27,968 nt of DNA from IMG/VR virus record IMGVR_UViG_3300032245_000624; one strand, written 5' to 3'. How positions within the stretch are numbered: position 1 is the stretch's first letter; every line of letters begins with the position of its first letter. Made by a program: the position numbers and the translations under genes. This DNA is from a virus. Taxonomy: Duplodnaviria; Heunggongvirae; Uroviricota; Caudoviricetes. The notes under the pieces were generated by a model that was not told the origin of the DNA, did no database searches, and saw nothing but the letters and a program-made list of their open reading frames with translations. Positions 1,155 through 19,690 of the stretch are shown one piece after another.

Positions 1155-2459
1155 TTAATTACTTGAGTATCTAGTTCCAGTTATTCCTGTAGGCGATCCT
1201 GGTGGAATTGTTAATTTCCATACGCCGCCTTTTTTAACATAGATAGCATCTATGCTTTTCCAAACTCCATTTTCTTTACGCCAAACATCAATACAGGGTT
1301 TCCACGAACCGTTTACTTTGGTAAACACATGGGTGATTTTACTAAAAATCAAAGTTACTTGTCCATTGCGAGTGTAGTTGCCAGCGTTGTTAATTCTATA
1401 CGGATTAGTAGGCTGACCAGCCGATGCGGCGTTTGGGTTGAGTGGTCTTGGATCTTCTGTGTAATCACCTAAGCTAGAGCCATTTTTTCCACCCTGGGTA
1501 CCACCGCCACCTGCTCCACCACGCCAACCTCCACCGCCTCCGCCGCCACCTCCGGGGCCATCGTCGTAACCACCCGAGCCGTCGCCACCGCGACCAGACT
1601 GAATATCGGCACTGCTAACTCCTAGTGCATCTTGACCGTCACTGCCATCGTCAGTGTTGCCACCGCCTCCGCCGCCACCGCCAGCAACACATACATGGGT
1701 CACACCCTCGGTTGCAGTTGTAACTACCATCACAGCACTAGCACCACCACCACCAGCTCCGCTGCCTTGATCGTTGTCAGCATCATATATTTGTTGACCA
1801 AATCCGCCACGTCCGTCAAAGTTAAGACCAGTATAATAGCCGCCACCATTTCCGCTGATGACAACATTTCGTGGCGAACGAGTGGTCCAAATCTGATTAC
1901 CATTTTGTAGGATACGAGCACCAATTGAAGCTGGACCACCAGTGTTAATGCCATTTATTCTGATAGTGTGCCATCCTTCGGTGATAACTTTAGAACCAGA
2001 CCAAACACTGTTATAGCTAGGGGCATACACTATTGCAACTTCATCAACATACAGTGTACCATAATTGTCAACAGATAAATCAAAATTATAACTTTGAGTT
2101 GCGGGAAAATAAAACCGCCAGGTGTAATCTCCATTGCCTTCCCACACGCTGAGACTGTTTAGCATACTGGCCCAGGCTCCGTTTGTTGCGCCGCCTGAAT
2201 AGTATGATGCCCCGGCACCCGGTGCTCGACCATTGGCACCAGCTGAGCCAACAGCAACTTCAATGTATTGGGTATCTTGGTTTACACTAAAATATGTTTG
2301 TGCAAAACTACCGCCTGCACCTGCACCACCTAGGTCACTGTTTCCGCCACCACCACCCCAGGCAAGTGCAGTTACCACAGGACGATATTTGTCCTTGGTA
2401 AAGCCGGTGACTTTGTATGCACCGGGCGAAGTAAAGTTTAAAACTATTTTAGCTGGCAT
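1155..2459 (-). CDS. Glycine-rich virion fibre/adhesin-like protein with a central PA14-like beta domain
   Basis: Poly-Gly runs (AWGGGGG, AGGGGGGGG); central FYFPATQSYNFDLSVDNYGTLYVD...GWHTIRING resembles PA14-type carbohydrate-binding inserts; three C-terminal K-x-(N/G)G-x-WK repeats. Confidence 0.6.
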   Translation of the reverse strand: MPAKIVLNFTSPGAYKVTGFTKDKYRPVVTALAWGGGGGNSDLGGAGAGGSFAQTYFSVNQDTQYIEVAVGSAGANGRAPGAGASYYSGGATNGAWASMLNSLSVWEGNGDYTWRFYFPATQSYNFDLSVDNYGTLYVDEVAIVYAPSYNSVWSGSKVITEGWHTIRINGINTGGPASIGARILQNGNQIWTTRSPRNVVISGNGGGYYTGLNFDGRGGFGQQIYDADNDQGSGAGGGGASAVMVVTTATEGVTHVCVAGGGGGGGGNTDDGSDGQDALGVSSADIQSGRGGDGSGGYDDGPGGGGGGGGGWRGGAGGGGTQGGKNGSSLGDYTEDPRPLNPNAASAGQPTNPYRINNAGNYTRNGQVTLIFSKITHVFTKVNGSWKPCIDVWRKENGVWKSIDAIYVKKGGVWKLTIPPGSPTGITGTRYSSN

Positions 2460-2461
2460 GA

Positions 2462-2668
2462 TTATTTGATACCTTTGGCCTTGGCTTCTTTTTCTAAGTC
2501 TGCTTTACGACGAGCCAGCTCTGATTTAAGATCTGGATCTTTGTGAGTTTCTGGATCCAATTGAATGTCTTGTAATGCTTTGCGTTTGGCTTGGTAATCT
2601 TCTTTGTCTTTTAGTGCAGACTCGGTTAATTTAGCTTCGTACGAATTTATTATATCTGATATGAACAT
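2462..2668 (-). CDS. Hypothetical charged protein, 68 aa (possible head-internal protein)
   Basis: Tightly packed ORF in operon; charged helical; N-terminal KLTE|S motif. Confidence 0.7.
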   Translation of the reverse strand: MFISDIINSYEAKLTESALKDKEDYQAKRKALQDIQLDPETHKDPDLKSELARRKADLEKEAKAKGIK

Positions 2669-2678
2669 ACGTTTATCC

Positions 2679-3410
2679 TCAAGGCTGTTGCAACATACTT
2701 TTTATTTTAGGAATATTCTCTGGAGTGATTTCCTGTGCCAATGCACTACCTATTGATGATAGTTGTTGTTTTTGTTGAGGACTAAGTTTAGTTGGATCAG
2801 TTTTGGCTACCGAGGCTGCTTGTGCCGCTTGTTGCGGATTTATTTTTGGATCTTGTATAGTACTCTTTAGTTGTGCCATTGCTTGTACTTGTTTTGGATC
2901 AGCTATAGGTGCAGTGCCTGGCTTTTGTTGCTGTTGTTGTGGCTGACCTGGTTTAGTTGGTGCAACAGGCTGTCCTGGCTTGGCAGGGGGTTGTCCTGCA
3001 ACAGGTGCGGCTGGTGTTGTTCCAGTAGCAGGCGCTGCACCAGGCTTTGCTGCCTGTCCGGTAGTTGGATCAGTTTCTTCTTCGTCTACTACTCGTTGCT
3101 GATTTTGACTTGGTGGATTGATGTTAGCAACAGGACTGGTTCCAGCCGCTTCCTTGTCATCGCCGGCTTGATTATCAGTGTCTTTGACAAAGTACTTGTA
3201 TTCTTGCATGAGGCTTTCGCGGAGTTGATCAAAGTCATCTCCATGTTCCACACTCTCGGCAGCACCGCTGCCTACCAGGCGACCTTTGAAAGGGTGATCT
3301 TTGCCACTCTTTTTGGCTTTGTCGGTTCCGCGAACTTGGTCTCCAGACTTTTGTTCAGGTTCCCCGGCAAACTTATCCATGCTCTCTAAGAGCTTACGCA
3401 TATCACTCAT
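2679..3410 (-). CDS. Hypothetical protein with Pro/Gln/Ala-rich low-complexity region, 243 aa
   Basis: ATGA overlap with upstream ORF; KLLE|S and QLRE|S motifs; repeated (A/T)KPGQP segments. Confidence 0.75.
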   Translation of the reverse strand: MSDMRKLLESMDKFAGEPEQKSGDQVRGTDKAKKSGKDHPFKGRLVGSGAAESVEHGDDFDQLRESLMQEYKYFVKDTDNQAGDDKEAAGTSPVANINPPSQNQQRVVDEEETDPTTGQAAKPGAAPATGTTPAAPVAGQPPAKPGQPVAPTKPGQPQQQQQKPGTAPIADPKQVQAMAQLKSTIQDPKINPQQAAQAASVAKTDPTKLSPQQKQQLSSIGSALAQEITPENIPKIKSMLQQP

Positions 3411-6400
3411 TTTTTCTTGGCCTTTTTCTGTTTTTTATAAAAGATGCTAACGCCAAATCCATTGCCGTCTCCTGTGCTAGTTGCAATGCCACCTGCACTA
3501 GTACCACCATCTTCCTTTACATATTTAGCGGCTTTTCGAATTGGTTCTTCTACAATCGCTGCCACTCGTTTTAATGCTGTTTCTTCTAGTTCAGTAACTG
3601 CTCGTTGTTTATTTTGGAATGCGCGACTGCGTGTACCACCTTGTCTACGAACTTTTTCCAGTTCTGCATGAGCTAGTTCAATTTCTTTTGCAATAGGCTC
3701 TAGATTCATTGATTGAATCTTTTTGTATACATTTTCCCACATCACTGGGTCATCAATGTGTTGTCCAGCAGACTCCAGGTCTTGAGCCAGTTTATTCACT
3801 CGACGAATCAAGCTCTGTTTCCAGCTACGCAAAGTCATGCGGCCCATGCCCACATCTGGTGCAAATTCACTGTTATACGGATCTTCACGATCGTATTGGA
3901 ACAGTGTTTCTTCTAGATCTCTATCGCCGTTTGGCATAGGCAACGCATAGTAATCTTCGTCTTCTTCATCAGCGTAGTCATTATACTCTACATTGCTGGA
4001 GTGGAAACTGTGCTTGCCGTGGTTGTATAAGTTAACAACAACAAAACGCTTGTCTGCACCAAAGCTGTCAATGTCACCAGTTTTACCTTCAAACTCCACA
4101 TTGCCTGTGATAATAACAGGGTCGCCGATGTGCAGTTCTTCTGCGTTTTCGCGCACGGCATCTTTAGGAACAGGCTTACCTGCCCACTTTTTTAATGCTT
4201 CGTGTCCGCGCTTGCTGTCTTTGACTTTCTTGGCCAGTGCTGGATCTTGTCTCAGCATCCAGCCTGGCTTGGCACCTGTGGCACCTTCATTTTGTGGGTA
4301 CCAAACTTTGCCTGTACCAAATTCGCGATCAGCTACTTGCTGTGCTAGTCTATTGCCAGTGGGCAGATACCATTTGCCTGAACGTGTTTGCTTTAATCCT
4401 AGCTCACGTGCTTTGTCAAAGTCTTTTACATTGTAGAAGATCATGCCGGTAATCTTACGCATCTTGTCGTCAAACTCTGAATTACCTTCGTCATCTTCTC
4501 TGCGGCGACCGCCAAGACTTGGTGCATGTGGACTTGCAAAGCCTGGGCTGTATCCACGGTTACGACCATATCCTGCTTCCGCTAAACCTTCTAGTTCTTC
4601 TGCTGGCCAGCTGATGTAGCTGTCGCCATTGATGTCGCCTGCTTGCACAACAAATGCGCCGCCGTTGTCATAGCCTTCATCTTGGCCAATTTCCCAACCT
4701 GCGGCTGCTAATGTTTTTTCTACACGAGGATCTTCGTCACCTTGCCACCACTGTGCGGCTAGACGTTTTAGTGTTTCATCGCTGAATCCATCGTTGCCGT
4801 CATCTCCGCCAGGAGGTGCAAATTCGTTAATACTTGGCTCTTTACCTAGATCTTTTTGACGCAGACTTTTCTTCATAGTATCAATCTTTTTACCTGCACC
4901 CACTTGGTCCAAGTTAGCATCCTTGGCAGCTTGATTGTACTTGCGTTTGACTTGCTTTAGTTCTGAGCCTTCCGCCATGCCTTGTTCATCAAACGGCAAA
5001 TACCAGAACCAGTTTTCAAATCCACCTGGATTTGTGTCGTAATCTAAATGTGCGCTATTTCTAGCACCACGCATCATTCTAGTAAATTCTGCCATGGCGT
5101 TGTTCTTTTCAGCCACGGCTTCCAAGGCATCATACAACTGACCTGCTTTGAAACTATCTTTATGTTTTTCAATACCTGGCGCCAATTGATCGTATACTTC
5201 AGCAAACTCAGCATGTAGGTCGCTCATTGCACTTTCACCTACTACGTCATCCATGGCACGTTTTAACAAACGTTCTTCTTGTTCTTTTCTTTTGTCCAGT
5301 GACTTGAATCTGTCATGCTTGTAGGATTCTACTTCGGGTTTATCAGTTAGGATATCAAACGCATCAGGATACTTGCCTGACACATAGGCCCATGCACGTT
5401 TGAATTCAGTTACATCGCCTGTCTTCAATGGTTCACGCAACAAACTGTATGCTGTTTCAATTTGATTAAAGTTATTATAAGACTCACGATGATCAACACA
5501 ATTACGATATGACTTGGTTAGCTTTTCTAAAATCTCGTCTGTGTTTAGTCCCTCTGAGATTAAACTTTTTCCATTCTTAAGGAAACTAAAACTTTCTTTA
5601 ATACCTTTACCTACTTTGCCAGTCACTGACTTCTGTGGTGTGTTTGCTGGATTTTTGCCTATCAAGTTATAGCCCTTCATCATTTTTCCTAATGTGCTTG
5701 CGTCCACGTCGTTATCGTCGCCCATGGTGGCCATCACATAACGTGGATCTTTTGAATTCTTTACAACGCCAACTCCTGCGGTCTCTAACACAGTGTCTTC
5801 GTTGGTATCAGTTAATGGTCCGCCGGTTACCCATGCATCACAGGTTCTGCGACTGGCGCATTTAAATTTTAAGAACTTACAATATCCTAGGTCACCAGCA
5901 TCGATAGTAGCTTCGGCGTCACTAGGATTGTCACGGTCAATACCTTGAGCAATACAGTCCAGTGTGTCTTGACGTACATCAAAGGCAGCACAGTTACCAC
6001 ATAGGCTTTGTTTAGCTTCATCTGCACTGTCAAGATTCCATTCATCTACTTTTTTCATCCAGAACTTGCGATTGGGTAGATCTGGATTCAGCGGGCCGTA
6101 CCCATATTCATCAATGGCCTTTTGTCTATTTTTAAGATTGAGTGCAATATCTTGTGTGGCAGGTGGGCATTCTTTGTTAACATCTTCTGACAGTCGAGGT
6201 GGACCGTACACAAAGGCCTTGGGATTCAAATTGAATTTCTTAGCAACTGCTTCGATATAAGCATGAGCTTTGCTCAATGGAATATCACGTGCTACCTGTT
6301 TCTTTATTTCTTGCCCAGGATACTTGCCCATGCCGTGAATGTAGATATTCACCAGCTCATCTTTGGTGAGCACAACACCTTCTGTAGTAACAGGAGTTTC

Positions 6401-7072
6401 AACTGGTTTAAGTTTAGGACTTGGCTTGGCAGCGGCTTCAGTCTGCCCATTGGGAATCTTGTCCAGTGTTTTGCCCAGCTCTGGGTCATTGATACCGTAT
6501 AGTTGTTTTAAAAATTCAGCACGTTGCTCAGGACTGTTGCGTACCTGATTCCAGGCAGCACGAGTTTGAGTGCCGTGACTTACATCTATAGTTTTGCCGC
6601 CAATGGTAATCTTGCGAGAACGCTCATTGGCAATAATAACATAGCCATGCTGGTCAGCAGTGGCGCAGTCATTTATATTTTTGAATTCTTGGAAGTAGCT
6701 AGGAGTACCGTCTTTTTTAAACGACCCTGGTCTGAGTCTTTGAGCATCTGGTGCGCCCACTGCGGTAATAAAAATAATGTTTTCTTTATCAGTCTGAAAT
6801 TGATCAGGAAGATCATAGGGTTTGCTGACTTCAATTACATTGTGATTGGGCACACCAGCGGCGTGCATGAAGCGAATTTTATCACTAAAATTAAATGGAC
6901 TTTTGTCCCCGTCTGTTTTGTTGCTGGTAACAATGTACACATTGTCGCTGCCAAATTTGCCAGCCAGCGTTTCAAATACATCCAGGTGCCCTAAATGAAA
7001 GGGCTGGAATCGTCCAGGATATGTAACCACTAGACGATGTCCAGCGCCTTCAAACATTTCAACTATAAACAT
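3407..7072 (-). CDS. 1221-aa modular protein: N-terminal HxGH (cytidylyltransferase-like) nucleotidyltransferase followed by many small modules
   Basis: YPGRFQPFHLGH at the N-terminus; Cys-rich module; SH3/KOW-like module (LHIGDPVIITG...GKTGDI); modules separated by hydrophobic-x-Glu linkers. Confidence 0.8.
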   Translation of the reverse strand: MFIVEMFEGAGHRLVVTYPGRFQPFHLGHLDVFETLAGKFGSDNVYIVTSNKTDGDKSPFNFSDKIRFMHAAGVPNHNVIEVSKPYDLPDQFQTDKENIIFITAVGAPDAQRLRPGSFKKDGTPSYFQEFKNINDCATADQHGYVIIANERSRKITIGGKTIDVSHGTQTRAAWNQVRNSPEQRAEFLKQLYGINDPELGKTLDKIPNGQTEAAAKPSPKLKPVETPVTTEGVVLTKDELVNIYIHGMGKYPGQEIKKQVARDIPLSKAHAYIEAVAKKFNLNPKAFVYGPPRLSEDVNKECPPATQDIALNLKNRQKAIDEYGYGPLNPDLPNRKFWMKKVDEWNLDSADEAKQSLCGNCAAFDVRQDTLDCIAQGIDRDNPSDAEATIDAGDLGYCKFLKFKCASRRTCDAWVTGGPLTDTNEDTVLETAGVGVVKNSKDPRYVMATMGDDNDVDASTLGKMMKGYNLIGKNPANTPQKSVTGKVGKGIKESFSFLKNGKSLISEGLNTDEILEKLTKSYRNCVDHRESYNNFNQIETAYSLLREPLKTGDVTEFKRAWAYVSGKYPDAFDILTDKPEVESYKHDRFKSLDKRKEQEERLLKRAMDDVVGESAMSDLHAEFAEVYDQLAPGIEKHKDSFKAGQLYDALEAVAEKNNAMAEFTRMMRGARNSAHLDYDTNPGGFENWFWYLPFDEQGMAEGSELKQVKRKYNQAAKDANLDQVGAGKKIDTMKKSLRQKDLGKEPSINEFAPPGGDDGNDGFSDETLKRLAAQWWQGDEDPRVEKTLAAAGWEIGQDEGYDNGGAFVVQAGDINGDSYISWPAEELEGLAEAGYGRNRGYSPGFASPHAPSLGGRRREDDEGNSEFDDKMRKITGMIFYNVKDFDKARELGLKQTRSGKWYLPTGNRLAQQVADREFGTGKVWYPQNEGATGAKPGWMLRQDPALAKKVKDSKRGHEALKKWAGKPVPKDAVRENAEELHIGDPVIITGNVEFEGKTGDIDSFGADKRFVVVNLYNHGKHSFHSSNVEYNDYADEEDEDYYALPMPNGDRDLEETLFQYDREDPYNSEFAPDVGMGRMTLRSWKQSLIRRVNKLAQDLESAGQHIDDPVMWENVYKKIQSMNLEPIAKEIELAHAELEKVRRQGGTRSRAFQNKQRAVTELEETALKRVAAIVEEPIRKAAKYVKEDGGTSAGGIATSTGDGNGFGVSIFYKKQKKAKKK

Positions 7073-7114: not shown

Positions 7115-8059
7115 TTATACTGGCTGTGCTTGAGGAGCAGGAGCACCTTGCGGCTGTGCCATCTTTTGAATATCCAGCTTGCTGATGTCGCCTGCAAATT
7201 CGTAGTGTCCTACGTGGTTTAGCAGGGTTTTGCTGTGTGCCCAGATTTCACCGCCAATTGCTTGCCAGCGACGGCAGAATGTCCAGTCTTCGCTTAGATA
7301 GTGACCACGCTCGTCAATAACGCAGTCAAAAATAGCATACATCATTGGCTCGTATTGCTTGCCCAAGCCAATATCATCCACATATTTGCTTTCTGGATGT
7401 GCGGCAATCAACTTCTCGTACACATGACGCTTGAACAACAAGAATCCTGTGCCCATGGTATCCACAGTATAGATGTCGCCTTGTACAGTTACAGTGGGCT
7501 TCAAGTTAATAACATAGTTGATTGGCAGTGCTTTCTTAGGGTACAAACCACCAATAACATCCTTGTCATACGCAATCATCTGGAATATGCTTTCTGGTTG
7601 GAAGCGAATGTCAGCATCAATAAACATAAAGTGAGTGGCTTGTTTATTGGTCATCATCTTGGCCATCAAGTTGTTGCGTCCACGAGTGATCAATGATTCA
7701 TTGACCATTGTGTCCAGACTCCAGTTTAATCCCACTTGCTGTGCCATGAGCACAAAGCGCAGGAAGCTGGTCATTGTTGGCTCAGATACCATACCACCAT
7801 AGCAAGGAATACCGAGGTGTAAATGTACCTTGGTAAAATCAAATTGTTGATTTTGTTGTGGAGCATTGGATATTTGTTGGCTTTGGCCCACTCGTGCAAT
7901 TTCTTGCAGAATGCTTTGTTGCTGAGCCGCTGACTCAGGGCTGTTTGCAGGCGGATGAATTCCACCAGCTGGGGCCTGTAGTGTTGGCTCTGCAGAAGCA
8001 GGTGCCGCTCCAGGAATTACAATTTTTTTGCCCTTGCGGGGATTATTTTGATCTGACAT
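7115..8059 (-). CDS. Glycosyltransferase GT-A-fold-like protein with low-complexity N-terminus
   Basis: HLGIPCYGG beta strand, ESLITRGRNNL, FMFIDADI (DxD), GTGFLLFKR and SEDWTFC motifs typical of GT2-like phage proteins. Confidence 0.7.
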   Translation of the reverse strand: MSDQNNPRKGKKIVIPGAAPASAEPTLQAPAGGIHPPANSPESAAQQQSILQEIARVGQSQQISNAPQQNQQFDFTKVHLHLGIPCYGGMVSEPTMTSFLRFVLMAQQVGLNWSLDTMVNESLITRGRNNLMAKMMTNKQATHFMFIDADIRFQPESIFQMIAYDKDVIGGLYPKKALPINYVINLKPTVTVQGDIYTVDTMGTGFLLFKRHVYEKLIAAHPESKYVDDIGLGKQYEPMMYAIFDCVIDERGHYLSEDWTFCRRWQAIGGEIWAHSKTLLNHVGHYEFAGDISKLDIQKMAQPQGAPAPQAQPV

Positions 8060-8306: not shown

Positions 8307-9032
8307 TTATTTATCAGGCTCAATTTGCCGGTACTCCTCAATTGATCTAACAAAACCAGGAGAGATCAAACTCAACATGGTTATGATACCACGATCCTTG
8401 ATATAAAAATATCCTCCCCATATGGTATCAAACGGCTTGGCCAGCATGCCAGCTAGATGCCCTGGCACATGCACATCTGATCCAAGATTCTGTAGGTAAG
8501 ACAAAATTTGTTTTTTGGTTTCCACAGCATAGCGGCCTTCTCGAACATTCACACGAAATGGATATTCAACGGGTCCGTTTTTTACTACAAACCCTTCTTG
8601 GATTGTTTTGAGTATCTGTGCAGTAGCAGGCCTGTGTATCCTTGCCAAATGCTGATTTGAATTGTGTTGAATAGATCTAGCAAAATCCAATAGATCTTTT
8701 TCATTATAGCTGTACACACTCAGTCTTGGTTCTTCAACACGAAATTTTAAACGAGTTTCAAAATCTTTTTGTACCTGGCGTATTAGATGAAGAATTGCAA
8801 TTTCGTCAATAGTGGGTAACTTCATACGTCGGTTAACCCAACTACCACCATAGTTGATGGATCGTCGTTGTCTTATGCTGACATGTTCTGCTATAGTTTG
8901 GTCAGGGTACCTTAGTACACTAACTCCCACGGCCTCTACCTCTAGTTTATAGAAATACTGACCGTAGAAGTTACGTGTAACAGGTTTGACTTCTATATCA
9001 GGATTTAATTTGGTCCAGTACAATGTATCCAT
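8307..9032 (-). CDS. Hypothetical protein, 241 aa
   Basis: ORF track 8307..9080; likely start MDTLYW at 9032, overlapping the clpA 3' end by 35 nt. No family recognised. Confidence 0.75.
   Translation of the reverse strand: MDTLYWTKLNPDIEVKPVTRNFYGQYFYKLEVEAVGVSVLRYPDQTIAEHVSIRQRRSINYGGSWVNRRMKLPTIDEIAILHLIRQVQKDFETRLKFRVEEPRLSVYSYNEKDLLDFARSIQHNSNQHLARIHRPATAQILKTIQEGFVVKNGPVEYPFRVNVREGRYAVETKKQILSYLQNLGSDVHVPGHLAGMLAKPFDTIWGGYFYIKDRGIITMLSLISPGFVRSIEEYRQIEPDK
8308..8313 (-). promoter_or_regulatory. TAAATA late-promoter-like motif
   Basis: ATAAATA overlapping the stop of the upstream gene, 25 nt before the 54-aa ORF. Confidence 0.5.
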
Positions 9033-11289
9033 TAGAATCAATAGTTGGTAAAATAGTAAATGCAGATTGCTGTATATCAAATGTCATGGAATCGTTTTCA
9101 AAGTCCACAACCACAACAGATCCAGCTGGAACATCTTCAAATAACATTTTCTTACTCAGTGGCACTTTGATCAAGTCGTTGATCTTGCGTGTTAGAGGAC
9201 GAGCCCCCATCTTGCTGTCAAATCCAGTGTCCACCAAGTGATCAACTGCAACTTCACTCAAACGCACACGTACCTGTTTGTCGCTTAACAATTCATTCAT
9301 TTCATTGATAAACTTAGCAACAATCTTCTTCATGCTCAGACGATCCAGTTTGTTAAACTTACAGATACCATCCAAGCGATTACGGAACTCTGGCTTGAAG
9401 AAATCTTTCACAGCTCGGTCGTCTTCGCCTGTGCGTTCTAGACTGCGTCCAAAACCAATATTGTTACGTTCGTTGTCTGCGGCACCTAGGTTAGATGTCA
9501 TGATAATGATACTGTTACGGCAGTCGGCTTTTTTGCCGTTGCTACTGGTAACAAGACCTTCGTCCATCATGGTAAGCAAGATGTTGGTAACATCTGGGTG
9601 AGCCTTTTCTACTTCATCAAACAAGATAACACAGTTAGGGTTCTTTTCAATTTCGCTGATTAGCAAGCCGCCGCCAAGGTTGCTGTCATCATAACCTACG
9701 TATCCTGGGGGCGCACCAATCAGTTTAGCGATCGAATGCTTCTCTTGGTACTCACTCATGTCATATCGTAGTAGTTTCATCCCAAGACTTTCGGTTAACA
9801 ATTTAGCCAGTTCAGTTTTGCCTGTGCCTGTTGGGCCCATGAACAAGAACGAACCTATGGGTTTGTTGAGTGCTTTCAAACCAGCACGGCTTACATAAAT
9901 CTTTTCTAGCACAACATCAACAGCAGAGTCTTGACCAAACAGTTTGTTCTTGATCTTGAACTCTAAACCATCTAGACTCTTGGCGCCTTCGGTGTTGTTG
10001 ATTTGTTCAATTGGTAGCTTGGTAAACTTGCTGATAGTTTCAACAATGTTTATTTTGCTTGCAGTCCAGTCAACAGCATTGATCTTTAGTTTAGCACAAG
10101 CAGTGTCAATCAAGTCAATGGCTTTGTCTGGTAGCTTCTTGTCTGTTTGATAACGCACTGATAAGTCTACTGCGGAATCAATGGCCTCGTCGCTGATTTT
10201 GCCACCATGGAATTCTTCAAAGTGAACACGCAGGCCACGCAGAATATCTTTTGCCACAGCAGGAGTAGGCTCATCAACAGTGAGTCTATAGAATCGACGC
10301 ATCAACGCACGATCCTTCTCAAAACTTTGTGTGTATTCTTCCCAAGTGGTTGATGCAATAACCTTGATGCGACCTTTGGTCAGTGCTGGCTTGATCATGT
10401 TGGCAAAGTCAACATTGCTACCTGACCCAGAACCTGCGCCACGCATTTGATGTGCTTCGTCAATGAACAATATGCACTTGCCCTTGATGTTCAGTGCCTT
10501 GATAACATCCTTGAGCTTTTCTTCAAACTCGCCGCGGTATTTGCTACCGGCCAGCAATGATCCAATATCTAGGTTGTACACAGTGTAGTCTTTTAGGTAC
10601 TCTGGTACTTCGCCGTCCACAATCTTCTTGGCCAGTCCTTCTGCAATAGCAGTTTTACCCACACCAGGATCGCCTACCATGAGCACGTTTGATTTGTTGC
10701 GCTTGGCCAGCACATGTGAGATTTCTTCAATTTCATATTCGCGACCAATCACTGGATCAATCTTGCCTTCTTTGGCTTGTTCATTGAGATCGTCGCAATA
10801 CTCTTTGAGCACTGCCAGTGCCTGTTGTTTGTGAGCACTCTTGCGCTGACGGCCTTCGCGATAGTTTTCATTATAGAAATCTACAATTTTACCACGCTCA
10901 ATACCTGCTTTGATAATAAAATACGAAGCATGGCTGTTGGCTTCGCTACTGATGCTAATAAACAGATCAATCACTTGCATGTGACCACGTCCAGTGAATA
11001 GAACTTGTGTGAGTGCGCGATTGAACACACGCTCTAGTGCATGAGTTTTCTTTGGCTCAGTGTCATCAAGTTTAGCCACCAGCCAGTGTGCATTATCGTG
11101 ATAGTCGTTGATGTCATGAACAATGCCTTCTACGTTCGCGCCAAATGCTACCAGTAAATCACCAAATGGTTTGTAGGTAAGCACAGCATGTAATAGGTGC
11201 TCCAGAGTCACATATTCATGATTGTACTTTTTGGCATTTTCGCTAGCTGAAGTAATAATAACTTCAATTTCTGGATTGGGCTGTATCAT
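8998..11289 (-). CDS. clpA: ClpA-type Hsp100 AAA+ ATPase (ATP-dependent Clp protease ATP-binding subunit)
   Basis: Clp N-domain (HEYVTLEHLL), two Walker A motifs (GDPGVGKT, GPTGTGKTE), Walker B (LFIDE, LFDEVEKAHPDV), pore loop KYRGEFE, IGF loop (NNIGFG), GARPL; 763 aa with no ClpB middle domain. Confidence 0.93.
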   Translation of the reverse strand: MIQPNPEIEVIITSASENAKKYNHEYVTLEHLLHAVLTYKPFGDLLVAFGANVEGIVHDINDYHDNAHWLVAKLDDTEPKKTHALERVFNRALTQVLFTGRGHMQVIDLFISISSEANSHASYFIIKAGIERGKIVDFYNENYREGRQRKSAHKQQALAVLKEYCDDLNEQAKEGKIDPVIGREYEIEEISHVLAKRNKSNVLMVGDPGVGKTAIAEGLAKKIVDGEVPEYLKDYTVYNLDIGSLLAGSKYRGEFEEKLKDVIKALNIKGKCILFIDEAHQMRGAGSGSGSNVDFANMIKPALTKGRIKVIASTTWEEYTQSFEKDRALMRRFYRLTVDEPTPAVAKDILRGLRVHFEEFHGGKISDEAIDSAVDLSVRYQTDKKLPDKAIDLIDTACAKLKINAVDWTASKINIVETISKFTKLPIEQINNTEGAKSLDGLEFKIKNKLFGQDSAVDVVLEKIYVSRAGLKALNKPIGSFLFMGPTGTGKTELAKLLTESLGMKLLRYDMSEYQEKHSIAKLIGAPPGYVGYDDSNLGGGLLISEIEKNPNCVILFDEVEKAHPDVTNILLTMMDEGLVTSSNGKKADCRNSIIIMTSNLGAADNERNNIGFGRSLERTGEDDRAVKDFFKPEFRNRLDGICKFNKLDRLSMKKIVAKFINEMNELLSDKQVRVRLSEVAVDHLVDTGFDSKMGARPLTRKINDLIKVPLSKKMLFEDVPAGSVVVVDFENDSMTFDIQQSAFTILPTIDSNGYIVLDQIKS

Positions 11290-11307: not shown

Positions 11308-11315
11308 TATTTATA
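11308..11315 (-). promoter_or_regulatory. TATAAATA, full T4-late consensus, upstream of clpA
   Basis: Exact TATAAATA on the minus strand at the dnaJ stop, followed by AAGGA RBS and the clpA ATG. Confidence 0.6.
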
Positions 11316-12168
11316 GGGTGTTTTTGAATATCAGTAGTGCTTGGCGTTGCTCGTCTGTTAAGTGTTTAGGAATTATAACATTAACATCCACAATCAAGCT
11401 ACCTCTTATATGACCATTATGGTTTTCTAAACTGTACAGGCCTTGATTAGGAATACGGAACTTGGTACCGGGAGTAACACCAGCTGGAATGTTGATGTTA
11501 AACACTCGACCATCAAGTCCAGGGATGTCCGCTTGTGTTCCTAACATTGCATCAACAGCATGAACATCACATTGATACAATAAATCCATTCCATGCACTT
11601 GGTATAGAGGATCTGAGTTGATATGAAACGAAACATACAGATCACCACGCGGTAGATTGCCCATCATGTTGTCACCAAGGCCGGAGTACTTGATACTTGC
11701 TCCAGTGGTTACACCACGTGGAATGTTTACCTGTACTGTTTGTCTTTCGCCGGTTGTGGTCTGAACACTGATTGTTTTTTGTTGTTCCTGAAGTGTATCC
11801 ACTAGGTTCAACGATATTTGTACACGAAGATCTTTGTTGCGCCTCTGTTGCTGTTGACGAGCATGAGCAAAAGGATCAACCCCGGGATGAAAACCAAATT
11901 GGCTAAAGATATCATCAAAAGGACTGCCGCCACCAAAGGTAAAACTAAAGCCGCCCGGGCCGTGGTTGAATCCTTGTGGTTGTGGGTTATCGTGTTGCTG
12001 TCGTCGAGCAGGGTCGCTGAGAGTTTCGTAAGCCTGTTGTAGTTCTTGAAACTTGGCTGTGTCACCACCTTTGTCAGGATGATGTTTTGCAGCCAGTTTT
12101 CTATAGGCTTTTTTGATTTCGTCTTCGGAGGCTCCCTTGGGAACTCCTAATATAGAGTAATAGTCCAT
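11311..12168 (-). CDS. dnaJ: DnaJ/CbpA-class co-chaperone (J domain plus C-terminal domain, no zinc finger)
   Basis: MDYYSILGV...YRKLAAKHHPDKGG (HPD), G/F-rich linker, GDLY and DLL motifs; no CxxCxGxG repeats. Start placed at second ATG (12168). Confidence 0.92.
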   Translation of the reverse strand: MDYYSILGVPKGASEDEIKKAYRKLAAKHHPDKGGDTAKFQELQQAYETLSDPARRQQHDNPQPQGFNHGPGGFSFTFGGGSPFDDIFSQFGFHPGVDPFAHARQQQQRRNKDLRVQISLNLVDTLQEQQKTISVQTTTGERQTVQVNIPRGVTTGASIKYSGLGDNMMGNLPRGDLYVSFHINSDPLYQVHGMDLLYQCDVHAVDAMLGTQADIPGLDGRVFNINIPAGVTPGTKFRIPNQGLYSLENHNGHIRGSLIVDVNVIIPKHLTDEQRQALLIFKNTL

Positions 12169-12174
12169 TCGCAT

Positions 12175-12259: not shown

Positions 12260-12799
12260 TTATTGCTTGTCGCCAAGTTTTTCTTTTGTACGACCGTATG
12301 CGGCAATACCAAGAACAGCACCCATAGCAATATGATAAAGACCTGCGCCCTGTAGTGTCAATGGTTGCCATTGGCTGGTAACCTGTCCACCTTGCAGAGT
12401 TTGGAGAATACTCCAAAGAATTGGAAAAATCACAAAGTCAAAGAAACAGGTCAGCATGTACAACCAACCCATGGCCGGACGCCACTTGTTGTTAATCCAG
12501 TCTGTGTTGGTGTTGGCCACTGTGCTTTCGGCGCCACCAGCTACTGCCGCGGCTGCACTGGCTGTACGATCAGGGGCATAACCTGTTGGACCAGCTTGTG
12601 GTTGTGGTGCCTGTGCTGGCAATGCTGCCGCACCAAATCCTACTGCACCAAAATTACTAGACGGTGTAACGGCTGGCGCAACACCAAATCCTGATGCTGG
12701 GGGTGCGGAACCAAATCCTGCACCAAATCCGGAAATCTTTTGATCTGCATCACCTGAGTCACCTAGGTCTGCAATCGGGGTTTTTGTATTTGTAGGCAT
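12260..12799 (-). CDS. Putative holin (3TM/GTA-holin-like) with FG-rich disordered N-terminus
   Basis: C-terminal NKWRPAMGW...FDFVIFP...WQPLTLQGAGLYHIAMGAVLGIAAYGRTKEK with hydrophobic helices; last gene of the lysis cassette. Confidence 0.65.
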   Translation of the reverse strand: MPTNTKTPIADLGDSGDADQKISGFGAGFGSAPPASGFGVAPAVTPSSNFGAVGFGAAALPAQAPQPQAGPTGYAPDRTASAAAAVAGGAESTVANTNTDWINNKWRPAMGWLYMLTCFFDFVIFPILWSILQTLQGGQVTSQWQPLTLQGAGLYHIAMGAVLGIAAYGRTKEKLGDKQ

Positions 12800-12823
12800 G
12801 TCGAGCTCCTTTTAAATATTTGA

Positions 12824-13087
12824 CTATTCAGTCTTTGCCTGTTCTATAAGTTGATACAGTATGTTGTTGAATACCAACTTGGGTTCTAACTCATGTGATT
12901 CAGCAAATGGGCTGGTTTCTCCCATCACAGTCTCGAGACTGTTGATCAATAACTGCTTGTCAGCATCCGCTTGGTAAGCATTAACAAAGATCAATGCTCG
13001 TGCGGCACTACCAGCAAACCAATAGTTGCTGTTTTTAAATTCTTCAATTTGTTGTTTAAAATCTTCCACTAATATACCCTCAAACAC
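12824..13087 (-). CDS. Hypothetical protein, 87 aa, in lysis cassette
   Basis: 8-nt overlap with upstream ORF; acidic, helical. Confidence 0.7.
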   Translation of the reverse strand: MFEGILVEDFKQQIEEFKNSNYWFAGSAARALIFVNAYQADADKQLLINSLETVMGETSPFAESHELEPKLVFNNILYQLIEQAKTE

Positions 13088-13343
13088 TAGTTAACATGCT
13101 GCCGGCGTTAATTACAACATTTATTATACTATTTAACCTTTCTTTGGCAGAAAGATCCGCACACTGTGCATGAATCAATTGTTGACGCTGAAAATCCACT
13201 AGCAGTTCTTGATATTCGTCAGCAGAACAGTTGCCTGCTTGAAAGTCCTTGGTTAATGCTTCCAACTCATGAGCCAATGCCAACACTGCTGGATCATTAA
13301 CTGAAGTAGCATATAACTCATTTAAAATCATCTGTGCGTTCAT
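13080..13343 (-). CDS. Hypothetical protein, 87 aa, in lysis cassette
   Basis: ATGA overlap with upstream lipoprotein gene; acidic, helical. Confidence 0.7.
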   Translation of the reverse strand: MNAQMILNELYATSVNDPAVLALAHELEALTKDFQAGNCSADEYQELLVDFQRQQLIHAQCADLSAKERLNSIINVVINAGSMLTSV

Positions 13344-13738
13344 CTTGGTTTAGCTCCTAACACTTTTTGTATGTTGTCTGCTGACTGTTCAATGGCTGTG
13401 AACTTGGCCCGGCAGTATACCACGCTTGGGTCTTTGTCGCCCTGGTATCTTTTGTAAAAGTCATTGGTAATTTGGCTCAGTGTATCAGCTAGTTTAAAAC
13501 TATCTGTGTTACGAGGTATATGCTCTGCATAATTTTTGTACTCATTGGCCACTACAAAGATATACTTGACTTCATCTTTTACAGCAGGGGTGCCGCATTG
13601 TTCTTTTCCAATGCCAGCATGTGTGCGTATGCGAGCAATGTACTGATACTCATTCACATCAAACTTGGCCATAAAATAAGCATCGTACAAAGCACAACCA
13701 GGAAGCAAGAATGGTAATAGTAAAACTAATTTTTTCAT
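13340..13738 (-). CDS. Predicted lipoprotein, 132 aa, in lysis cassette
   Basis: Signal peptide II MKKLVLLLPFLLPG|C; ATGA overlap with o-spanin. Confidence 0.75.
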   Translation of the reverse strand: MKKLVLLLPFLLPGCALYDAYFMAKFDVNEYQYIARIRTHAGIGKEQCGTPAVKDEVKYIFVVANEYKNYAEHIPRNTDSFKLADTLSQITNDFYKRYQGDKDPSVVYCRAKFTAIEQSADNIQKVLGAKPR

Positions 13739-13998
13739 TTTACACTCTCATAGATTTGCTTTTGTGTTTTATGCCATTCTTGCCAAGCATCAACCTTGAC
13801 TTTGCATCCATGATATTTGCTGTAGTTGCGTACGATTACTTCGCTGGTAACACTCAATTGTTTGGTGTCTGCTGGTATTTTTTCTAATGCCTCGCAACTG
13901 GTTTTCAAGTCATCAGGAATATCTGGGAATGTCATTTTAACAGGCACCGTGGTTGAACAACCTGTTAACAATATTGCTAGTGCTAGTAGGTACTTCAT
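13735..13998 (-). CDS. Outer-membrane spanin (Rz1-like lipoprotein)
   Basis: Lipobox LLTG|C, Pro-containing segment (VPVKMTFPDIP..L...C), directly after the i-spanin candidate. Confidence 0.75.
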   Translation of the reverse strand: MKYLLALAILLTGCSTTVPVKMTFPDIPDDLKTSCEALEKIPADTKQLSVTSEVIVRNYSKYHGCKVKVDAWQEWHKTQKQIYESVK

Positions 13999-14453
13999 TT
14001 GGGTTCCTCCGATGCTCGGTTAATTGTTTCAATTACTCGTGGATCAACTTCGCACTTGGCATCAACTTCTTTTGCAATCTCTTTGATGCGATCAATATAT
14101 ACTGTTTCTTGTTGTTTGATTACTTTGGTTTTGTAAACAATCTTTTCTTGAATCACTATGTTTTGTTTTTTGCTCTGCTCTTCGGCAATCTTGACCTTGG
14201 CTTCCATTTCAGCCACACGCTCACGCCAGAGCATTTCAATACCATATCCGCCTGACAGGTAAGCACCAATGCCAAACAGCAGTACACCAACTACCTGTAC
14301 AGGGAAACGATATCTATTGATAATTGGCAGTATGGTAATAAACCAACTGACCAATATCAGTGCAAAGCCTAGTCCGGCACACCCATAAAACAGCCACATG
14401 ACTAGACTGTCTGGTAATAAACCAATTAACCAGCCTATTGTGCTGAAGCTCAT
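13995..14453 (-). CDS. Inner-membrane spanin (Rz-like)
   Basis: N-terminal TM helices followed by a coiled-coil (WRERVAEMEAKVKIAEEQ) and C-terminal Cys; between endolysin and o-spanin. Confidence 0.7.
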   Translation of the reverse strand: MSFSTIGWLIGLLPDSLVMWLFYGCAGLGFALILVSWFITILPIINRYRFPVQVVGVLLFGIGAYLSGGYGIEMLWRERVAEMEAKVKIAEEQSKKQNIVIQEKIVYKTKVIKQQETVYIDRIKEIAKEVDAKCEVDPRVIETINRASEEPK

Positions 14454-14454
14454 A

Positions 14455-15081
14455 TCAAGCTCCTAGTACATGGACAGCATGTTGAATGTGGTGTTCGCGA
14501 TCTGCAAGTCCAATGTATCCGCCATTGATTTTTTTGGTCAGTAACTTAATGTCCATCTTGTCTGCTTGAACATTGAGATTGTTGCTTTCCCAGAACCAAC
14601 AGGCACTTTGCACAGCACCTTCGTAGGTTTCCAAAAACTCAATGGTCTCTGCAATAGAACACTCAATGCTGTCTGCAAAGTTTTGATAGTTGTCTTTACC
14701 TGTCAATTGGATCAGTCCACGGCCACGATGCTTCCATCCGTCACCACTGCTCTCTGGGCCATTGCCCATACGGTTAGCATAGATCTTGTTGGCAATTTTT
14801 TCAGGCTGACGCTGATAAGGAACTGCGCTTTCGATTGTTGGAAAGTATTTTTTAAAAATGCTGTTCAGGCCCTGTGCTGAATAGTTTAGGTTTTCACGCA
14901 GTGCGCGATAGCCGCCCGACTCATGTGCTGTTTGACCAAGGAAACACGCCACACGTTGTGGAGTGTCAATATCATAGTCTGGAAGAATTTCGTTTAGTGC
15001 CAGGAACCACTGATCTACATGTGGTGCACCTTTTAGTATTGCTCTTAGTTTTGCTTCAGTAAAATCAAACTTGAAACTCAT
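14455..15081 (-). CDS. Endolysin, glycoside hydrolase family 19 (chitinase-like lysozyme)
   Basis: FLGQTAHESGGY...ENLNYS, DGWKHRGRGLIQLTGKDNY, SACWFW, TKKINGGYIGLADR motifs. Confidence 0.92.
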   Translation of the reverse strand: MSFKFDFTEAKLRAILKGAPHVDQWFLALNEILPDYDIDTPQRVACFLGQTAHESGGYRALRENLNYSAQGLNSIFKKYFPTIESAVPYQRQPEKIANKIYANRMGNGPESSGDGWKHRGRGLIQLTGKDNYQNFADSIECSIAETIEFLETYEGAVQSACWFWESNNLNVQADKMDIKLLTKKINGGYIGLADREHHIQHAVHVLGA

Positions 15082-17764: not shown

Positions 17765-19690
17765 TTATTTGCTGTCTTTTACTTCTGTAAACTCAGCGTC
17801 TACTACATTTTCTTTGGGCTCTGCATCAGCGGACTTACTGGCTTCTGGCGCCGCGGCTGCTTGTTTATCAGCTTCGGCCTTCTGCGAGATTTCCATCAAT
17901 GGCATGAACTTAGGAAAACTTTCTTCAATTGCTTTTTGAATTGCATCAGGATCATCACCTTTGATAGCTTCTTTCAAGAGATCCAATTGTTCATTGATAG
18001 AAGTTTTCTGCTCGTCCAACAACTTATCGCCGTGTTCTTTGAGGCTTTTCTCAACTCCCCACACTTGATGCTCTGCACCATTTCTTGCCTCGACCAACGC
18101 ACGTTGCTTCTTATCAGCATCTGCATTGGCTTCTGCATCCGCAACCATCTTTGCAATCTCAGCTTCAGTGAGACCTGAATTGGCCTTGATTGTGATGTTG
18201 TTTTCTTTGCCGGTGTTCTTGTCTTTAGCAGACACTTTAAGAATACCATTGGAGTCAACATCAAAGCTAACTTCAATCTGTGGAGTACCACGTGGTGCTG
18301 GAGCAATACCTTCCAGATTGAACTCGCCCAACAGTTTGTTGTGTTGAGCTATTTCACGTTCACCTTGGTATACCTTGATAGTAACAGCAGGCTGGTTGTC
18401 ATCGGCTGTAGAGAACACTTGACTCTGTTTGGTAGGAATTGTTGTGTTCTTGGTAATCAGCTTGCTCATTACACCGCCCATGGTTTCAATACCCAGTGAG
18501 AGTGGTGTGACATCTAGTAGCAACACATCTGTCTTGTCGCCACCTAACACAGCACCCTGAATGGCCGCACCCGCGGCAACTGCTTCGTCTGGGTTAACGT
18601 CCTTGCGCGGTGCCTTGCCAAAGAAGCTTTCTACATAGCCTTGTACCATTGGCATACGTGTCTGACCACCAACCAAGATAACATCATCAATGTCAGCGGC
18701 TGTTAGTCCTGCATCCTTTAATGCTTGACGGCATGGCTCAATTGAACGCTCTACTAGATCAGTAACCAGTGATTCAAATTTGCTACGACTCAGCTTGATT
18801 GCCATGTGTTTAGGACCACTTGCATCTGCTGTGATATATGGTAAGTTGACTTCTGTTTGTGCAGAGCTGGATAGTTCAATCTTGGCTTTTTCTGCGGCAT
18901 CCTTTAGACGTTGCAGTGCCAGTGTATCCTTGCTTAGGTCAACACCGTCGCTCTTGAGGAACTCGTCTACCAAGTAGTTGATAATAGCTTGGTCAAAGTC
19001 TTCGCCGCCTAGGAATGTATCTCCATTGGTAGCAAGTACTTCAAACTGCTTGTCGCCATCCACATTGGCAATTTCAATAATTGAAATATCAAATGTACCA
19101 CCGCCCAAGTCGTACACAGCAATCTTTTGATCTTTCTTGGCTGCTTTGTCCACACCATAAGCAAGAGCGGCCGCTGTGGGCTCATTGATAATTCGCAGAA
19201 CTTCTAGGCCAGCAATCTTACCAGCGTCTTTGGTTGCTTGGCGTTGACTGTCGTTGAAGTACGCAGGCACGGTGATAACTGCTTGAGTCACTTCGTGGCC
19301 CAAATAGTCCTCTGCGGTCTTCTTCATCTTGCGAAGAACTTCTGCTGAAATCTGTGGAGGTGCAAGGTCTTTACCACCTGCTTGAATCCAAGCATCACCG
19401 TTTTTTGCTTCGGTGATTTTGAAAGGCATTAGGTCAATGTCCTTTTGCACTTCCTTGTCTTTGAACTTGCGTCCAATTAAACGCTTGCTGGCAAAGATTG
19501 TATTTTTGGAGTTTGTTACTGCCTGGCGCTTTGCACTTGCGCCTACTAGAACTTCATCATTGGCGTATGCAACAATACTAGGTGTAGTACGTGCGCCTTC
19601 TGAATTTTCGATTACTTTATATTTGTCGCCTTCCATAATAGCGACACATGAGTTTGTGGTACCCAGATCGATACCGATGATTTTAGCCAT
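17765..19690 (-). CDS. dnaK: DnaK (Hsp70) chaperone
   Basis: [52 protein letters not shown]-terminal DAEFTEV; 641 aa; AAGGAG RBS. Confidence 0.97.

Follow-up and report, generated by a model that had tools for sequence, protein, structure and literature searches.

A cassette mosaic in a huge T4-like phage as a probable capsid-cargo polyprotein

Introduction

Is a long phage protein that reads as a chain of unrelated small pieces one protein, or many that would be cut apart, and if so where and to what end? The question is raised by P0001, a 1221-residue ORF at 3407-7072 on the minus strand of the window, by which we mean the whole 27,968-nucleotide stretch of IMG/VR virus record IMGVR_UViG_3300032245_000624. 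The first-pass annotation read the span 2462-7072, which holds P0001 and the next two ORFs, P0002 and P0003, as a protease-processed polyprotein of head-internal proteins. We found no published description of such a polyprotein system. Here, we examined the cassettes and junctions of P0001, its homologues and the related phages.

Results

A mosaic of independently occurring cassettes

About 13 cassettes, each found independently of the others, make up the mosaic of P0001, and the initial view of it as a string of unrelated small modules is borne out. The features are listed from the P0001 N terminus onward, with residues numbered as in P0001 and arrows at the predicted cuts.

7049..7072, minus strand: N-terminal leader, residues 1-8, MFIVEMFE↓G, a candidate capsid-targeting sequence ending in hydrophobic-x-Glu
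6380..7048, minus strand: cassette 1, residues 9-231, a cytidylyltransferase-like (HxGH) nucleotidyltransferase ending in TTE↓G
6185..6379, minus strand: cassette 2, residues 232-296, ending in RLSE↓D
5783..6184, minus strand: cassette 3, residues 297-430, a highly conserved seven-Cys module ending in TVLE↓T
5552..5782, minus strand: cassette 4, residues 431-493, and a short spacer, residues 494-507, ending in GIKE↓S and LISE↓G
5234..5551, minus strand: cassette 5, residues 508-613, ending in VVGE↓S
4970..5233, minus strand: cassette 6, residues 614-701, ending in GMAE↓G
4823..4969, minus strand: cassette 7, residues 702-750, module GSELKQxK, ending in SINE↓F
4577..4822, minus strand: cassette 8, residues 751-832, FAPPGGDD...SWPAEELEGLAE↓A
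4487..4576, minus strand: cassette 9, residues 833-862, ending in DDE↓G
4286..4486, minus strand: cassette 10, residues 863-929, ending in QNE↓G, with breakpoints at 862/863 and 929
4148..4285, minus strand: cassette 11, residues 930-975, GATGAKPGW..., ending in AVRE↓N
3908..4147, minus strand: cassette 12, residues 976-1055, a small beta-barrel ending in DLEE↓T
3581..3907, minus strand: cassette 13, residues 1056-1164, a helical module, usually the last in family members
3407..3580, minus strand: C-terminal tail, residues 1165-1221 and stop, predicted disordered, Gly-rich and then Lys-rich
2679..3410, minus strand: P0002, 243 residues, leader MSDMRKLLE↓S and then a low-complexity Pro/Gln/Ala-rich protein
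2462..2668, minus strand: P0003, 68 residues, leader MFISDIINSYEAKLTE↓S and a single small helical cassette

The family holds 174 long and 678 short homologues, in which the same cassettes stand in varied orders and combinations, and some cassettes are free-standing in cultured-phage records. Shuffling among related phages, proposed at the outset as a check, is found across more than 170 metagenomic homologues.

A known family was recognised for cassette 1 only (PF01467, E = 2e-9), which also has weak sequence matches to PPAT and NMNAT in the PDB and is the leading module in ~75 homologues. This was the only match of P0001 in the Pfam and PHROG searches, and the other 12 of the 13 cassettes fall in no family recognisable there, so to call them effectors is a guess. 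Searches of P0001 brought up no peptidase family; most cassettes are beyond modelling, and hidden folds are conceivable.

The cassettes differ greatly in their spread. Cassette 3 occurs in more than 60 homologues at 73-90% identity and at any position in their proteins, preceded by GVAE↓, GMAE↓, FVTE↓ and similar sequences; it is also free-standing in phage records, annotated there as 'HiPIP', a match not found in the Pfam search. Cassette 2 takes other positions in P0006, P0008, P0011, P0013 and P0071, and cassette 9, a separate unit of 30 residues, does so in more than 25 homologues and accompanies cassette 10 in the short proteins P0195 and P0201. Cassette 5 is rare within the family, and a Synechococcus phage, BUCT-ZZ01, has a hypothetical protein that matches its residues 510-578. 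Cassette 13 is a conserved C-terminal block in ~44 homologues.

Hydrophobic-x-Glu recurs ahead of the same cassette in different surroundings. It precedes cassette 4, the 'AAGVGVVK' module, in 34 of 39 distinct contexts, cassette 8 in 77 of 79 and cassette 12 in 47 of 53, the last with a highly variable P2. Cassette 8 is the most shuffled of all, with 93 HSP starts at residue 748. In unrelated contexts cassette 7 follows GVAE↓G, QVDE↓G and the like, and cassette 11 follows GVAE↓G, NMAE↓G or NVAE↓G in homologues. Cassette 6 lies in the polyproteins of two related genomes with a T4-type protease, G005 and G006, between TVKE↓G...DLNE↓S and SVAE↓G...QVDE↓A.

The structure models of P0001 are of low confidence overall (mean pLDDT 46-57). 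AlphaFold gives cassette 2 three strands and a helix (pLDDT 63-82), residues 985-1030 of cassette 12 reach pLDDT 70-77, and helices are placed at 1081-1187 in the cassette 13 region with modest confidence. The junctions at 296 and 1055 lie in low-confidence stretches (residues 290-313 and 1035-1079) that separate the predicted folded units. The C-terminal tail is below pLDDT 50 and has no conserved homology among the family homologues; its possible sites, LEE↓T (1164) and VKE↓D (1187), are both without comparative support.

The position of the junction motif

All 11 motifs listed in the first-pass annotation, hydrophobic-x-Glu at proposed module boundaries, are present, with P1 Glu at residues 296, 430, 493, 507, 613, 701, 750, 832, 975, 1055 and 1187. 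Ten of them are homology breakpoints in BLAST comparison with the family, and 1187 alone is without such support. Three further junctions had been missed, at Glu231 (TTE↓G), Glu862 (DDE↓G) and Glu929 (QNE↓G). Their P3 is not hydrophobic in P0001, and homologues show GLGE↓G or GVAE↓G at these places.

The [ILVM]xE count in P0001 is 27 against 16.8 ± 3.5 in shuffles (p ~0.003). Its density of 2.2 per 100 residues is no higher than in the DnaK, ClpB and clamp loader of the window, so the early worry about chance matches was right as to raw counts. As to position the worry does not hold, for the motif is associated with breakpoints. The motif signal is position, not number.

At objectively defined breakpoint clusters of P0001, the motif stands at 6 of 9 and Glu at 9 of 9 (p = 1e-4 with a uniform null and 0.036 with a Glu-only null). 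Family-wide, a breakpoint lies in the -4..+2 range around P1 for 50-62% of [ILVM]xE instances, whereas the control motifs [ILVM]x[D/K/Q] reach 6-9%. Breakpoints land on P3. The expected enrichment at module boundaries is likewise seen in the junction contexts, where 314 of 366 distinct ones (86%) carry [ILVM]-x-E against 14% of random 10-residue windows.

The junction logo has L/V/M/I at P3, a variable P2 (A, N, D, S, K, T, E), Glu at P1 and F/G/D/N/S/A at P1'. Two cleavage rules had been cited for such sites. The T4 rule of hydrophobic-x-Glu agrees with the boundaries, but the phiKZ-type [SAG]xE has a breakpoint in 18-19% of instances, which is the background level.

Leaders and the downstream ORFs

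The N-terminal leaders in the family are of 5-16 residues and end in hydrophobic-x-Glu, as in MFIQQLFE↓, MYAFELFE↓, MQIFDIFE↓, MKAIEFVTE↓ and MRASEFISE↓, in likeness to the T4 capsid-targeting sequence (CTS) MKTYQEFIAE. Those of P0001, P0002 and P0003 appear like the T4 one at the level of resemblance. Homologues of cassette 1 that have no leader begin directly at the Rossmann strand.

The start of P0002 overlaps the stop of P0001 by 4 nt. The motifs noted earlier near the N termini of both downstream ORFs, KLLE↓S, QLRE↓S and KLTE↓S, are all there, the P0003 leader reading ...AKLTE↓S. A homologue of P0002, P0196, has its leader and N-terminal 48 residues with cassette 8 inserted after hydrophobic-x-Glu sites, and residues 22-66 of P0003 are an internal cassette of an 870-residue polyprotein of G005, flanked by GVNE↓D and HIAE↓G. 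Judged from these arrangements, the 'leader plus cassette' proteins and the internal cassettes are interchangeable. P0002 and P0003 both belong to the polyprotein system, and what would be left of each after the cut is found again within other polyproteins.

A T4-type head protease in the clade

Genomes G005 and G006 encode Peptidase_S77 (PF03420), Portal_T4, scaffold and Gp23, and their DNA polymerases are 56-61% identical to that on the window's contig. One contig of 186,570 bp carries both a protease (P0284) and a polyprotein (P0115) that occupies the slot between the ClpB and ferritin genes, as P0001 does. In the closest relative, G001, the head block is missing for the sole reason that the contig is broken at just that point. 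The proposed search for a prohead protease gene has thus yielded a gp21-family protease in related phages, the polyprotein contig included.

Discussion

P0001 probably serves a huge (~350-400 kb), uncultured T4-like phage as a capsid-cargo polyprotein, with P0002 and P0003 as its single-cassette versions. The 8-residue, CTS-like leader would carry all 135 kDa of the chain into the core of the prohead. A gp21-family (Peptidase_S77) prohead protease, presumably encoded by the phage, would then cut after Glu at each hydrophobic-x-Glu junction. Some 13 small proteins of 3-25 kDa would be freed, remain inside the head and pass into the next host along with the DNA.

As the cassettes are joined by the cutting motif of the T4-type head protease and headed by a T4-like capsid-loading tag, one tag probably loads many proteins for delivery. 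T4 CTS fusions load proteins up to the size of beta-galactosidase (PMC9026906). The early proposal of a processed, head-internal polyprotein thus gains the mosaic, the boundary motif, the clade's protease and the CTS-like leaders, and the processing itself is predicted from them. Packaging, cleavage, delivery and the roles of the cassettes are what we infer from the parallel with the T4 internal proteins and Alt.

A different and unlikely reading takes P0001 as an uncut multidomain protein of the polyvalent type, an established class (PMC5512222), with hydrophobic-x-Glu as flexible linker and in-frame recombination junction for swapping. The breakpoints lie exactly at the motif. Moreover, in related loci GVAE is encoded as GGTGTGGCGGAA in 21 of 33 distinct sites, and Ala is encoded there by the rare GCG in 82% of the sites versus 8% in the background, a DNA-level conservation that suits homologous exchange. 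As the junction is frozen at silent codon positions in relatives, it may be conserved partly for recombination rather than proteolysis.

However, only 2 of the ~14 P0001 junctions resemble this DNA word; the cassette 6 junction matches it in 15 of 18 bases. The others (RLSE, SINE, AVRE, DLEE) have unrelated codons and residues. Most junctions in P0001 have no DNA word in common but do have a hydrophobic P3, a P1 Glu and a free P2, the hallmark of a site that is read as peptide. By these comparisons the motif is conserved as peptide, not only as DNA. It also ends the N-terminal leaders, where nothing needs joining, and fits the specificity of the protease family that the clade encodes. The roles of recombination junction and cleavage site can coexist and are not exclusive.

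It is rather improbable that the prohead protease cuts P0001 into mere scaffold, core filler or DNA-condensing peptides, to be degraded or expelled like T4 gp22, gp67 and gp68. The T4 core proteins are indeed cut at many sites and most fragments exit the head (PMC9026906), several predicted P0001 fragments are tiny (14-49 residues) and alternate between basic and acidic, and most cassettes are without an enzymatic signature. But cassette 1 is a nucleotidyltransferase, and family members have ADP-ribosyltransferase (ART), ParB_N, Zeta-toxin-like and HD domains, ART and ParB_N both in the relative P0097. The Cys-rich cassette is near-invariant across the family, which fits a folded functional protein better, and the gene has chaperone and ferritin genes as its neighbours, a long way from the head block.

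A polyprotein that stays in the cytoplasm and is never packaged is very improbable; any processing would then fall to another protease, such as phage ClpP/ClpB or an enzyme of the host. ClpB-, DnaJ- and DnaK-like genes adjoin P0001, and the T4 late promoter TATAAATA is absent upstream of the gene, which also leaves the suggested late expression unsupported. To our knowledge, however, Clp proteases do not cut at defined hydrophobic-x-Glu sites, and the leader is CTS-like and the motif follows the gp21-type rule. An assembly chimera or mis-called ORF that fuses separate small genes, as might be thought of a single metagenomic contig with many cassettes that are separate genes elsewhere, is hardly credible given 3666 nt free of stops (table 11), the identical protein on two contigs and more than 100 independent long homologues of the same design (JGI, ENA, NCBI, Logan).

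One of the closest likenesses of the proposed capsid-cargo polyprotein is found in phage T4. Its internal proteins IPI, IPII, IPIII and Alt have, like P0001, a short N-terminal leader ending in hydrophobic-x-Glu (PMC3012670, PMC9026906, PMC8442874). Cutting after Glu by Peptidase_S77 is common to them and, as predicted, to P0001; both groups are diverse, fast-evolving cargo with only the leader in common, and ART is found in Alt and in other members of the P0001 family. The T4 proteins are single-domain with one cut (Alt at both ends), whereas P0001 has up to ~13 unrelated cassettes per leader, with a site between every cassette and the cassettes shuffled among phages. The Pfam and PHROG searches gave no sequence homology of P0001 to IPI-III or Alt.

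Polyvalent proteins (Iyer et al. 2017, PMC5512222) also combine many unrelated domains in one polypeptide with extensive mosaicism, and P0001 with its ~13 cassettes is within their range of 2-15 unrelated domains. They are predicted to be packaged and injected, with proteolytic domain release proposed (PMC5512222). They rely on hub domains (zincin-like peptidase, MuF, ART, helicases, methylases) and an embedded peptidase, but the zincin-like MPTase, MuF, ART, SNF2 and methylase hubs were all absent from P0001 in the Pfam search. Its cassettes are mostly tiny (30-130 residues), and their release would depend on the head protease acting in trans at a defined junction motif.

The inner-body and ejection proteins of phiKZ, 201phi2-1 and SPN3US belong to giant phages too and are processed by gp175/gp245. 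There a diverged gp21 homologue cleaves a large number of head-internal proteins after Glu, some of them multiply (PMC9026906, PMC5694885). However, their S/A/G-x-E motif is not associated with the P0001-family junctions, and the substrates are paralogous families with propeptides rather than a chain of unrelated shuffled cassettes. The polyproteins of positive-strand RNA viruses, where one product is cut at short motifs into many proteins at fixed stoichiometry, are an analogy only: P0001 is from a dsDNA tailed phage, its protease presumably acts in trans within the prohead and the gain would be co-packaging, not genome economy.

At about even confidence, a large clade of uncultured T4-like giant phages has a combinatorial cargo, in which one capsid-targeting leader and interchangeable cassettes bounded by the head-protease site would let a single gene supply the capsid with a dozen proteins at a fixed ratio, the cassettes being re-dealt among phages. 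In some relatives the cut would be needed to uncover a Tat- or Sec-type signal peptide on a cassette, and if so the injected cargo could go on to the next host's periplasm.

Should the junctions prove to be cut, this large clade's packaged proteome would be readable from sequence as a leader and hydrophobic-x-Glu-bounded cassettes. It would then hold hundreds of candidate host-takeover or anti-defence proteins, mostly without a known family, and provide a natural set of rules for packing several proteins at once into capsids of the T4 type. It would also mean that dsDNA phages use a polyprotein strategy, for co-packaging and stoichiometric delivery.

Cassette mosaic of the putative polyprotein

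Read with table 11, the 1221-aa ORF (P0001, 3407-7072, minus strand) has no internal stop. The one family that Pfam and PHROGs detect in it is a cytidylyltransferase-like nucleotidyltransferase of the HxGH type, in the first 200 residues. Among 5.8 billion proteins searched, 174 were long relatives of 671-2137 aa, on contigs of up to 371 kb. BLAST resolves their common sequence with P0001 into discrete blocks, namely 1-210, 231-297, 294-422 and 430-489 in the N-terminal part, 696-752, 748-832, 830-862 and 863-929 in the middle, and 929-978, 973-1055 and 1052-1153 in the C-terminal part.

The order and combination of these blocks vary among the relatives. One or a few blocks occur in 678 further, shorter proteins, and single blocks stand alone in some cultured-phage records. 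Thus, the string of unrelated small modules described in the first-pass annotation is real, and its modules are shuffled among homologues.

Junction motif

All 11 [ILVM]-x-E sites that had been listed in the ORF are present. P0001 holds 27 [ILVM]xE against an expected 16.8 ± 3.5 (p ~0.003), but DnaK, ClpB and the clamp loader of the window match its motif density. Motif counts alone are weak evidence, the earlier concern that common Glu gives chance matches being valid for counts, and raw density was rejected as evidence, since the motif is just as frequent in DnaK and ClpB.

The positions are informative. Homologue alignments by BLAST start exactly at the hydrophobic P3 residue of the motif at LSE|D, INE|F, LAE|A, VRE|N and LEE|T, where the bar marks the predicted cut after Glu at P1. 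For nine junction classes, hydrophobic-x-Glu directly precedes the cassette in homologues with unrelated upstream sequence. It is found in 314 of the 366 distinct junction contexts (86%), compared with 14% of random 10-residue windows.

When 120 family proteins were compared all against all, a homology breakpoint lay within -4 to +2 of P1 for 50-62% of [ILVM]xE. Among the controls, [ILVM]x[D/K/Q] reached 6-9% and [^ILVM]xE or [SAG]xE 18-19%, so the motif is enriched at module boundaries. The pooled logo has Gly at P4 (31%), L/V/M/I at P3, any residue at P2, Glu at P1 and F/G/D/N/S/A at P1'. Three more junctions, Glu231, Glu862 and Glu929, add to the 11; their P3 is not hydrophobic in P0001 but is so in homologues.

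The specificity rule of T4 gp21, the prohead protease, is (L/I)-x-E. Judged from its residues, the junction site is of this type and not of the phiKZ type. Of the two cleavage rules cited earlier, the T4-type hydrophobic-x-E stands and the phiKZ-type S/A/G-x-E is rejected on its 18-19% near breakpoints versus 50-62% for [ILVM]xE. Both types of protease cut after Glu (PMC9026906).

Leaders and downstream ORFs

P0001 begins with MFIVEMFE|G, and other family members with MFIQQLFE|, MYAFELFE|, MQIFDIFE|, MKAIEFVTE| or MRASEFISE|. The T4 capsid-targeting sequence (CTS) is MKTYQEFIAE (PMC8442874). Some homologues of cassette 1 (residues 9-231) are leaderless and start right at the first strand.

The two downstream ORFs, P0002 (2679-3410) and P0003 (2462-2668), are part of the same system. 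P0002 has the leader MSDMRKLLE|S, and its homologue P0196 is identical to it over the first 48 residues and carries an insertion of cassette 8 of P0001 (751-832). In the related giant-phage contig G005, the mature part of P0003 recurs as a cassette inside a polyprotein of 870 aa, between GVNE|D and HIAE|G. The genes P0001-P0004 are tightly packed, with a 4-nt overlap followed by 10-nt and 2-nt gaps.

The last gene of this string (1155-2459, minus strand) encodes a protein of 434 aa that is rich in Gly and contains long poly-Gly tracts. It matches virion structural PHROGs weakly, has a stretch of 30% identity in the closest relative, G001, and is without the leader motif. Directly upstream of the polyprotein gene, 7115-8059 (minus strand) encodes a protein of 314 aa that resembles glycosyltransferases (phrog_1574, weak Anp1) and whose N-terminus is rich in Pro and Gln. 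In about 20 related loci, homologues of it (40-75% identity) adjoin the polyprotein gene.

Peptide rule or DNA word

In related IMG/VR loci (L001-L050), GVAE is written GGTGTGGCGGAA at 21 of 33 distinct sites, and its Ala codon is the rare GCG in 82% versus a background of 8%. This junction DNA word of the relatives is real. Among the junctions of the P0001 gene, just two come close to it, 701 (window 4970-4987) with 15 of 18 bases and 832 (4577-4594) with 13 of 18. The remaining junctions have unrelated residues and codons and keep P3 and P1; hence, as read from these sites, the common denominator is a peptide rule, as expected of a protease site.

The main rival explanation is that the multidomain protein stays uncut and that its linker functions in recombination only. 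A second role of the junction in cassette exchange is indeed likely in part of the clade, where the DNA word suggests an in-frame recombination site. An uncut protein is made less probable because the peptide rule is conserved independently of codons and the same rule is used at the leader ends.

Prohead protease in the clade

The prohead protease gene that was to be sought is found in relatives. In G005 (285 kb) and G006 (331 kb), Peptidase_S77, the gp21 family, adjoins the T4 portal, a coiled-coil scaffold and Gp23. Both contigs encode leader-bearing polyproteins with cassette 6 of P0001 (614-701) between hydrophobic-x-E sites. No protease, major capsid protein or portal was found in G001-G004 and G007-G010, which apart from G001 are 20-39% fragments.

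G001 (IMGVR_UViG_3300032268_000986, 342,865 bp) is 99% complete by CheckV, yet has no gene for a portal, protease, scaffold or major capsid protein. When it is aligned with G006 by gene order, the absent block falls exactly at the G001 contig ends. By this synteny the head-gene gap is an assembly break, and the completeness estimate is too high.

The protease P0284 lies in a block of Portal_T4, two other genes, S77, scaffold and Gp23, and shares one 186,570-bp contig (sample 3300059473) with P0115, a 1775-aa family member. P0115 sits between ClpB-like and ferritin genes, the slot of P0001, and has a leader-like N-terminus and a Cys-rich cassette bounded by AVAE|D and GVAE|G. A putative second protease/polyprotein pair is P0301 and P0117, both on 118,891-bp contigs. 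The protease family is very abundant, with at least 585 matching IMG/VR stretches and at least 8000 candidates at E <= 1e-20 in a large protein database. P0001 itself was not found in five protease-bearing IMG/VR records.

Genomic setting

The genes of the window are nearly all on the minus strand. They include a clamp loader, PhoH, a lysis cassette and the following chaperone set.

Chaperone genes of the window
8998-11289, ClpB-like double-AAA ATPase
11311-12174, DnaJ
17765-19690, DnaK
23937-24362, GroES-like protein (phrog_931)

The related locus L187 keeps the ClpB-to-ferritin surroundings of the polyprotein, with ClpB 56% identical. In the locus L053 (16023-17487, just past window position 1), the operon is followed by genes for a ferritin-like protein and a fatty-acid desaturase, both unusual as auxiliary genes of phages, and then by a family-B DNA polymerase. 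The probable lysis cassette (12260-15081, minus strand) comprises a holin-like protein, a small protein resembling LysC, two lipobox-bearing lipoproteins (spanin-like) and a glycoside-hydrolase-19-type endolysin, whose N-terminus MSFKFDFTE|A is likewise compatible with the leader rule.

P0001 is also encoded on a 101,152-bp ENA metagenome contig, with a family-B DNA polymerase a few kb downstream. Against IMG/VR giant-phage contigs, this polymerase is 74% identical to that of G001, 71% to G002, 62% to G004, 61% to G006 and 56% to G005. These five contigs are 101-343 kb, the shorter ones being 25-39% complete (CheckV). On these identities, the phage is a member of a clade whose genomes measure roughly 350-400 kb. 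Megablast with the window gave no DNA-level match among cultured phages.

Structure and possible functions

AlphaFold models of residues 970-1221 and 225-510 are of low confidence (mean pLDDT 57 and 46), with a small beta-barrel at 985-1030 and a three-strand-plus-helix unit at 231-289 (pLDDT 63-82). Confidence is low around junctions 296 and 1055, consistent with linkers. A fragment-based MAFFT alignment for folding 690-1221 was dropped, short fragments being misplaced.

The seven-Cys cassette (297-430) hardly varies within the family. The AlphaFold run over 225-510 gave no model of it, and ESM Atlas returned unnamed viral clusters only. Its GenBank label of high potential iron-sulfur protein (HiPIP) was rejected, with no Pfam HiPIP match.

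Other family members contain ADP-ribosyltransferase with ParB_N, a Zeta-toxin-like kinase, HD (RelA/SpoT-type) and several DUFs. These domains recall T4 Alt and the repertoire of the polyvalent proteins (PMC5512222, PMC9503650). If all junctions were cut, the predicted products would be 3-25 kDa with pI alternately acidic and basic.

Discussion

CTS-targeted internal proteins and polyvalent proteins are already known in general. In the literature searched, no published description was found of shuffled-cassette chains punctuated by the head-protease site. The proposed late expression of the polyprotein is unsupported, with no T4 late promoter found upstream of its gene.

On the evidence combined, P0001 is probably a capsid-targeted polyprotein that a gp21-type prohead protease cuts into about a dozen small proteins travelling with the DNA. 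The whole polyprotein would be targeted to the capsid and cleaved there by analogy with T4, and the released proteins, likewise as in T4, would be packaged and delivered along with the DNA.

Some cassettes of related polyproteins open with a twin-arginine-type signal right after the hydrophobic-x-Glu site, e.g. ...E|IDRRGFLKGLGAAAVAGAAG, and others with a Sec-type signal ending in APAQA, ...E|GWKSRLAGAALAGAAALGGAPAQA. They are seen in G005 (L100 and neighbours), the G001 ORFs 162554-163921 and 179650-181551, P0134 and P0166; P0001 has neither signal after such a site. The cut would expose the export signal at the N-terminus, so the injected cargo of these relatives might then be directed to the periplasm.
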